A DNA stretch of 64,000 nt from Candidatus Nomurabacteria bacterium (GTDB lineage: Bacteria; Patescibacteriota; Saccharimonadia; JAGOAT01): contig JACKGM010000002.1 in the NCBI GenBank assembly GCA_020639315.1, forward strand, positions 30,321 to 94,320. The letters run 5' to 3'. The position numbers were made by a program, and so were the translations under genes. A model generated the notes under the pieces. The model worked only from the letters and a program-made list of their open reading frames with translations, had not been told where the DNA came from and did not search any database. Shown one piece after another: positions 25,102 through 25,145 of this stretch. Numbering within the stretch: the stretch's first letter is position 1; every line of letters begins with the position of its first letter.

Positions 25102-25145
25102 GGTTAGGTCAAAAGGTTGGTTTTATTCTGAAATTGCTATATAAT
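25102..25145 (+). promoter_or_regulatory. pyrH promoter region resembling a MITE-B2 terminal arm; TGCTATATAAT 8 nt before the ATG
   Basis: ggttaggtcaaaaggttggttttattctgaaattgctata is 32/41 identical (hand count) to the B2 end gagttgggtcaaaagtctggttttgtttttaacttgctata. Confidence 0.45.

Follow-up and report, generated by a model that had tools for sequence, protein, structure and literature searches.

The genes for UMP kinase (pyrH) and for a cell-shape operon (mreB-mreC-mreD-mrdA) lie on the forward strand of a 64,000-nt stretch of contig JACKGM010000002.1, the whole of which is termed here the window. The organism belongs to Candidatus Saccharibacteria (TM7), and the same sequence is present in the metagenome-assembled genome (MAG) GCA_020428505.1. 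The pyrH gene (25154-25879, +) scores 264.8 bits against TIGR02075, above the cutoff of 243.9, and matches Pfam AA_kinase. The operon (27680-31959, +) comprises mreB (27680-28732), mreC (28733-29524), mreD (29528-30016) and mrdA (29998-31959), as judged from Pfam MreB_Mbl, MreC, MreD and PBP_dimer plus Transpeptidase, and from NCBIfam MreB and pbp2_mrdA (TIGR03423). Both pyrH and mreB follow a gene on the same strand, and both have a TATAAT box close to the start codon: at 25140-25145 (+), 8 nt before the pyrH ATG and of leaderless type, and at 27664-27669 (+), 10 nt before the mreB ATG. Directly upstream of each box is DNA that resembles one end of a MITE, a miniature inverted-repeat transposable element, termed B2, and sequence comparisons support the view that both stretches are solo B2-type terminal arms.

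B2 is a 164-nt repeat with ends TATAGCAAG...CTTGCTATA (TATAG...CTATA) that agree as inverted repeats at 24/27 of their outermost positions. B2 has features of bacterial MITEs: it is short, non-coding, bounded by terminal inverted repeats (TIRs) and dispersed in near-identical copies. The reference full-length copy is at 53118-53281 (+). A second full-length copy (8924-9087, -) is identical to it at 161/165 positions, and a third, diverged copy of 159 nt (21903-22061, -) shows 143/167 identity. In addition, a 44-nt solo right arm (34524-34567, +) is 100% identical to 53238-53281 and lies upstream of no gene; this exact arm shows that solo right arms of such length exist in the genome. A B2 copy is also found in an independent metagenome contig (L009). 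The related B1 family is represented by a 167-nt element at 41715-41881 (+), the ends of which share TCAAAAGT..GGTTTTGTTTT..GCTATA with B2, by a second copy at 33214-33380 and by partial copies. Every copy is flanked by TA..TA, and all intact B1 and B2 copies end in ...GCTA followed by TA. The outward left-arm end of the 21903-22061 copy makes TGCTATAAT at 22055-22063. A first-pass annotation of this DNA had quoted that sequence together with TGCTATATT at 53275, TGCTATAAA at 34561 and the TATAAT that precedes the pyrH ATG by 8 nt, and all four are found where it placed them. Intact MITE ends mostly face no gene.

The solo arm upstream of pyrH (25103-25139, +) reproduces, in degenerate form, the final ~37 nt of the B2 right arm and ends ...AAATTGCTA. 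The one upstream of mreB (27610-27663, +) corresponds to B2 right-arm positions 115-165, carries a 7-nt insertion (TCAGGGA) and ends ...GAGATTGCTA. Significance was assessed by gapped local alignment against the whole B2 element with 3000 shuffles. The pyrH arm aligns to B2 positions 125-165 with a score of 52 and the mreB arm scores 45; the shuffle mean is ~19 (sd 3), and none of the 3000 shuffles attains either score. Both alignments are colinear and reach the last arm base (...GCTATAT). After the true MITE copies, pyrH has the best B2-like segment of the window, and the full mreB alignment beats all other non-MITE 70-nt windows. The mreB match, with its single 7-nt gap, runs 5′ to 27610, where the stop codon of the preceding gene has its final base, and includes an arm-internal AGACTCT.G..TTGG beyond the insertion. 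The pyrH arm abuts a different repeat family; its sequence is identical in a MAG contig (L007) and a metagenome contig (L002).

The similarity at pyrH was first put at 32/41 by hand count; the likeness stands, and the count should read 32/40, ungapped, over 25102-25141. Over a 35-nt core, pyrH matches the B2 right arm at 29/35 positions and mreB at 26/35, which together with the alignment score bears out the similarity first suggested for mreB; the two promoter regions match each other at 28/35. Of the 28 nt before TGCTATA, 22 agree at pyrH, a match expected 0.0016 times per window, and 19 agree at mreB, expected 0.69 times per window; the window has only 21 TGCTATA sites, however, and the mreB match is in register with one of them. 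A hidden Markov model (HMM) built from nine mixed B1/B2 arms detects pyrH with E=0.022.

The pattern GTCAAAAGNNTGGTTT-N11-TGCTATA is present in the window only in three B2 right arms, at pyrH and at mreB. Among 185,579 species genomes the exact pattern has no match, although the window species and its sister species are apparently not in that set. Two matches occur in JGI metagenomes. One, in contig L009, is a true B2 arm that adjoins a repeat termed D3. The other (L008, 2285-2318) was set aside as a chance match, consisting of a terminator-like hairpin (ACCATG-TCAAAAG-CATGGTTTT) and then TGCTATAAT; it comes from an unrelated, AT-rich organism, in which it separates a fabG-like from an acpP-like gene.

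Comparison with a sister species (GCA_017983775.1), the sole close relative in the collections searched, is informative with respect to both sites. It is represented at the pyrH/mreB locus by L003 and at ybaB and dnaX by L090. Gene order at the pyrH/mreB locus is the same, with amino acid identities of 99% for MreB, 88% for PyrH and 88% for the Na+/H+ exchanger NaH. The sister pyrH site reads TAG-tgg-TATAAT-ctaagata-ATG (tggTATAATctaagataATG, TAGtggTATAATctaagataATG), whereas the window has ...gaaaTTGCTA-TATAAT-ctagtcta-ATG. At mreB, the sister has catgt-TATAAT-acttgattag-ATG (catgtTATAATacttgattagATG) and the window ...gagaTTGCTA-TATAAT-acaaggttag-ATG. From TATAAT downstream the two species agree at 39/51 positions for pyrH and 48/51 for mreB; upstream of it they agree at 12/40 and 10/40, respectively. 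Both arms are absent from the orthologous sister promoters, and homology resumes exactly at TATAAT. The native promoter of a neighbouring 175-aa gene is conserved between the window and the sister contig from TTGACA through ATG, and the parA promoter AACTTGCTATAAT is conserved as well; the break at pyrH and mreB is therefore not ordinary intergenic decay.

At pyrH the arm is the innermost part of a larger block. From the upstream stop codon to the pyrH TATAAT the window has ~415 nt that are absent from the sister and are all repeat DNA, with the arm nearest TATAAT. Some 375 nt of this (24725-25100), from the Na+/H+ exchanger stop to the arm, consist of other short repeats, namely GGATCCCCCGTAA...GGAGGATGACA hairpin units and ~28-nt arrays of families D1, D9, D10, D17 and D18; they are missing from the sister, where the intergenic spacer is 17 nt. 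The array of the window is not the same as that in the metagenome sample of contig L002; in the proximal 180 nt the two do not differ. Public assemblies of the window organism break at repeats, and neighbouring contigs added little DNA.

The junction TTGCTA|TA|TAAT is found at both pyrH and mreB, and GCTATA[AT]AAT occurs at only these two sites in the window. This is the pattern expected of a TA-duplicating element that inserts into the first TA of TATAAT. In the lineage of the window, a B2-type element would have entered the first TA of the ancestral TATAAT of each gene, and the duplicated TA would have restored an intact TATAAT beside the arm end, giving ...TTGCTA|TA|TAAT. The present boxes would then each be composed of a duplicated target TA (25140-25141 at pyrH) and the ancestral TAAT. 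All DNA upstream of the −10 would have been replaced by the element, with the box itself and the near-leaderless start kept, and regeneration of TATAAT would explain how core genes tolerated the insertion. The remainder of each element may later have been lost or overwritten by other repeats. Duplication of TA by B2 is suggested by the flanks of its copies, and the one observation that resembles an empty site is the sister TATAAT as against GCTA-TA-TAAT in the window at pyrH and mreB. With colinear homology to the terminus, absence in the sister, this junction and no left arm, the suggestion that these are solo B2 terminal arms holds up well.

Transcription would start from the old −10 box, aided by a weak −35-like TTGGTT that is 17 bp upstream of TATAAT in both arms (25117-25122, +, at pyrH; 27641-27646, +, at mreB). 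All mobile B2 right arms read CTGGTT at this place. The C to T change is one of four differences (T11, A19, G24, A27) that both promoter arms share relative to the mobile right arms, and these shared states point either to one source subfamily or to selection for TTG in both arms. The TG of TTGCTA is 2 bp too far from TATAAT to serve as a −10 extension. TATAAT is perfect at both sites, close before the ATG as in ~13 other leaderless-type promoters of the window, and is kept in the sister. The arms may contribute to promoter activity.

Resemblance to a generic promoter had been named as a possible source of error in the first-pass annotation. About 15 leaderless-type promoters of the window have a TATAAT-like box 6-11 nt before ATG, and seven of them read TGC-TATAAT or TGC-TATACT. 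These native promoters share TGnTATAAT alone and have nothing in common with the arm further upstream, and the box GTCAAAAG..TGGTTT is found in none of the native promoters examined in the window. The last ~9 nt of the arm similarity are therefore generic, but the likeness goes 30-45 nt further and survives the alignment with native promoters. It should be pointed out that the TGC of TGCTATAAT is not MITE-derived at every promoter. That notion was rejected, as parA AACTTGCTATAAT is conserved in the sister, and the promoter of a DHH gene has TGC in the window vs TGT in the sister in what is otherwise a native site. The arms were also considered as terminators or structured RNAs, and this too was rejected: folding z-scores are +1.1, -0.9 and +0.1, and Rfam finds three tRNAs only in the window.

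Arms next to −10 boxes are found at other genes of the two species. A partial B1 element (9083-9200, +) ends 1 nt before the extended −10 box TGATATGAT (9202-9210) of ybaB-recR. The sister ybaB (L090) has the same GTGATATGAT...GGAGG...ATG without the arm, in an intergenic spacer of 90 nt vs 720 nt in the window. The reverse situation occurs at a 126-aa gene of the sister, where TGTTATACT directly follows the end of a truncated, ~65-nt B1 arm and the window ortholog has no arm. Upstream of dnaX, an arm-like segment at the −10 box (2672-2705, +; TCAAAAGTTAGTTTTGTTTTGGAG..., 17/28) is common to both species, the sister reading TCAAAATTTTAGTTTTATTTTAATCTAGCTATA|TGCTAAGATAA (L090); this looks like an older insertion that was retained. 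The B-type MITE superfamily is thus present in both species and the pyrH and mreB arms in the window lineage only. Since the MITE family is older than these arms, the promoters appear to derive from MITE ends and not the reverse, which is the first of two alternatives that had been offered.

On balance, it is probable that the DNA upstream of pyrH and mreB consists of decayed solo B2 right arms, inserted into a −10 box that was regenerated, and that the arms assist the promoters. Several points weigh against this reading. The sample is small, with 64 kb of the window genome and ~35 kb of the sister genome examined. The arms might have been lost in the sister lineage rather than gained in that of the window, and there is no outgroup to polarise the change: among 80 mreB loci from other genomes the nearest MreB is at most 76% identical, pyrH is non-syntenic and the upstream DNA is unalignable. 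No clean empty site for an intact B2 copy was found in the sister species, where the sites are too diverged or multiply nested. A partner left arm is seen neither in 24725-25100 nor upstream of 27610, and neither site has a left junction; for want of a partner these are termed solo arms, not full MITEs. With the mixed-arm HMM, mreB is not significant (E=5.6). The insertion puts the ancestral TG extension (TGG/TGT in the sister) out of register by 2 bp. Finally, TTGGTT agrees with TTGACA at only 3/6 positions, whereas a sigma-70-type promoter should have either a −35 with four or more matches, spaced 16-18 bp from the −10, or a TGn extension that adjoins the −10; a simple sigma-70 scan called neither site. 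This last point, together with the several native promoters that have no recognisable −35, the intact MITE ends that mostly face no gene and the same-strand genes upstream of pyrH and mreB, leaves a smaller but appreciable chance that the arms are true MITE relics but neutral passengers, with transcription via the retained TATAAT alone or by read-through and no −35 or UP role for the arm. What speaks for a contribution of the arms is that displacement of the ancestral TGn extension should call for compensation in core genes, that both arms independently have T for the mobile-arm C and so make TTG at exactly 17 bp, and that the dnaX arm-like segment is conserved in both species.

Other explanations concern the origin of the arms. 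The opposite alternative of the first-pass annotation, that a MITE captured a consensus promoter and spreads it, could apply if GTCAAAAGnnTGGTTT-N11-TGCTATA were a native regulatory or promoter module, such as a regulator site of growth and envelope genes. The resemblance of pyrH to mreB, about equal to that of either to the B2 right arm, the four states they share that are unseen in mobile copies, and the mimicry of the organism's TGCTATAAT consensus by the MITE end would all be accounted for. This module is nevertheless missing from the orthologous sister promoters, where a native promoter is conserved, and the window's remaining genes do not have it either; the family predates these two sites, as both species have B-type arms; the mreB likeness reaches into arm-internal AGACTCT.G..TTGG, which has no obvious promoter role; and the TATATAAT junction fits TA duplication. 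Capture is thus disfavoured and appears unlikely. Just as doubtful is a single arm insertion, the upstream half of which was copied to the second promoter by local duplication or gene conversion. The sites are only 2.5 kb apart and share the four derived positions and an identical junction, ATTGCTATATAAT, but the shared states could as readily come from a common source subfamily, the arms are unlike in 5′ extent and in flanks (mreB has the extra AGACTCT..TTGG and the 7-nt insertion, and pyrH abuts a repeat array), and the DNA downstream of TATAAT matches each gene's own ortholog. There is very little probability that the resemblance is chance on top of a generic extended −10, with no homology to MITEs. 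It is true that TGCTATAAT is the commonest promoter core of the window and that the mreB 19/28 match alone, without conditioning, is expected ~0.7 times per window; against this stand the shuffles, the low expectation for the pyrH match, and the restriction of the box, with its 14 specified bases and the same spacing to TGCTATA, to B2 arms and these two sites.

Of known systems, the Correia elements of Neisseria (CREE/NEMIS) come nearest; they are small, ~105-157 bp, with TATAG... ends and a TA target (PMC2649163). B1 and B2 are likewise non-autonomous elements, of 164-167 bp, with TATAG... inverted-repeat ends and TA flanks, and as in CREE an A-rich inner repeat (AACAAAAnCnGGnAC) follows TATAGC. 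In the CREE ‘Black promoter’, the element end carries a −35 and a partial −10, which is completed at the insertion site (PMC2649163). By the logic of the sequence, the arm end TTGCTA plus a TA target could similarly form TGCTATA or TATAAT, as in TGCTATAAT at 22055 and TATAAT at pyrH and mreB. In best gapped alignments, B1/B2 termini (e.g. 53118-53145, 41715-41745) match the Correia repeat TATAG[CT]GGATTAACAAAAA(C/T)C(A/G)G(G/T)AC at 19-21/26 positions; when TATAGC is held fixed, 1-12% of shuffles equal this likeness, which is only weakly significant. CREE have been searched for as TATAG[CT]GGATTAACAAAAATCAGGAC or its three variants with no more than three mismatches (PMC2649163), and the B elements exceed this number. 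Membership of the Correia family is thus not supported statistically, and the B elements are taken to work like Correia elements and not as members of that family. CREE have been described as unique to Neisseria (PMC5039591). The present case differs in the phylum, Saccharibacteria, in that only decayed solo arms are seen, and in that the element would have landed inside an existing −10 and kept it, with no new promoter formed.

Near-identical promoter regions upstream of unrelated genes in one genome, linked to repeats such as Correia, ERIC and REPIN, have been described as promoter reuse or mobile promoters (PMC3575422). That survey was without candidate-phyla genomes like that of the window; here the comparison with the sister allows a specific MITE arm to be recognised, together with its probable point of insertion at the first TA of TATAAT. 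A literature search found no paper that joins Saccharibacteria with miniature inverted-repeat elements. Outward-facing promoters of bacterial MITEs are reportedly associated with MITEAba12. As in MITEAba12 and hybrid promoters made by the ends of insertion sequences (IS), a mobile-element end would give promoter sequence to an adjacent gene. The usual outcome there is that a gene is switched on or comes under a new promoter, whereas here a housekeeping promoter of leaderless type appears to have had its upstream half replaced, with −10 and start kept. The evidence thus supports a known phenomenon, the building of mobile-element ends into promoters, in a new phylum; its particular feature would be insertion into a −10 box that target duplication restores.

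Saccharibacteria have tiny genomes and few regulators, and there are no genetic tools in most lineages; the locus of pyrH and the cell-shape operon offers a readable example of promoter evolution in the group. A broader proposal can be put forward tentatively. Correia-like, apparently TA-duplicating MITEs may prefer to land in or just before leaderless −10 boxes, their arms acting as portable upstream modules that repeatedly replace the upstream halves of core-gene promoters (pyrH, mreBCD-mrdA, ybaB-recR, dnaX and the sister 126-aa gene) without killing them. If so, promoter turnover would be systematic in an ultra-small genome and the Correia type of element would extend beyond Neisseria. In the two genomes, <100 kb contained five cases of arm insertion at −10 boxes; if this is general, promoter turnover would be driven in large part by MITEs, which would also provide ready-made natural promoter variants for testing. 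For annotation, caution is needed, as a repeat in these genomes may coincide with a functional promoter or even contain the stop codon of a gene.

Several additional observations concern the arms and elements themselves. The promoter of the DUF2975 gene (34817-35305), at 35314-35330 (-), reads GTTTTGAGCGTGCTATAAT and is similar to GGTTTTGTTTTGAGCTTGCTATA of the B2 left arm, with E=0.07 for the arm HMM; it may be another decayed arm. At 53629-53656 (-), TTTTTTGTTTTCTTGCTATAAAT looks like a further degenerate arm end amid other repeats, upstream of no gene. B2 MITEs give the last codons and the stop codon to two genes: a DNA-alkylation-repair open reading frame (ORF; 21171-21914) that ends in B2 at 21903-21914, and a 682-aa glycosyltransferase ORF (51103-53151) that ends in B2 at 53118-53151. 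No autonomous IS with B-type ends was found within the 64-kb window. Two likely autonomous IS are present, one with an IS110-family transposase gene (1047-2303), the ends of which are unlike B arms, and one with an rve (integrase-core) gene (42313-43699) and its own 21-nt inverted repeat, CAGAATGAGCCTAAACAAGGT. Both were rejected as the autonomous partner of the B elements because their ends are unrelated.

With respect to start sites, a Shine-Dalgarno sequence is missing from at least a dozen genes in which the ATG follows a TATAAT-like box at 6-11 nt, and many of the boxes read TGCTATAAT. The sites are at 10461, 19459, 47609 and 63079 on the forward strand and at 63087, 44601, 41302, 40243, 36280, 35317, 34473, 32498 and 19022 on the reverse strand. 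This pattern suggests that leaderless transcription is widespread in the organism. A 524-aa ORF, a 126-aa ORF and ybaB retain a leader with GGAGG or AAGGGG.

The intergenic DNA is dense with other short repeats, at 24725-25100, 18226-18700, 32530-33065, 53290-53645, 54880-55170 and elsewhere. These comprise hairpin units GGATCCCCCGTAA..TTCGGAGGATGACA and arrays with a period of ~28 nt (TGTCATCCTCCGAAAnCCGCCCCTCT), and related repeat units are found upstream of mreB in the sister species. A 170-nt repeat (D3/D13) has five copies with 95-99% identity, at 2479-2648, 34577-34746 and 44899-45068 (+) and at 8697-8869 and 10155-10323 (-). Two of the window's B2 right arms adjoin it, as does one in metagenome contig L009, where the repeat is apparently nested in B2. 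The region 36000-40000 has a G+C content of 47.5% vs ~41% elsewhere and may have been horizontally acquired. Within it, a flotillin gene (37134-38597) has best non-self matches of 62-78% identity in mixed taxa and is labelled Candidatus Nomurabacteria in the source record.

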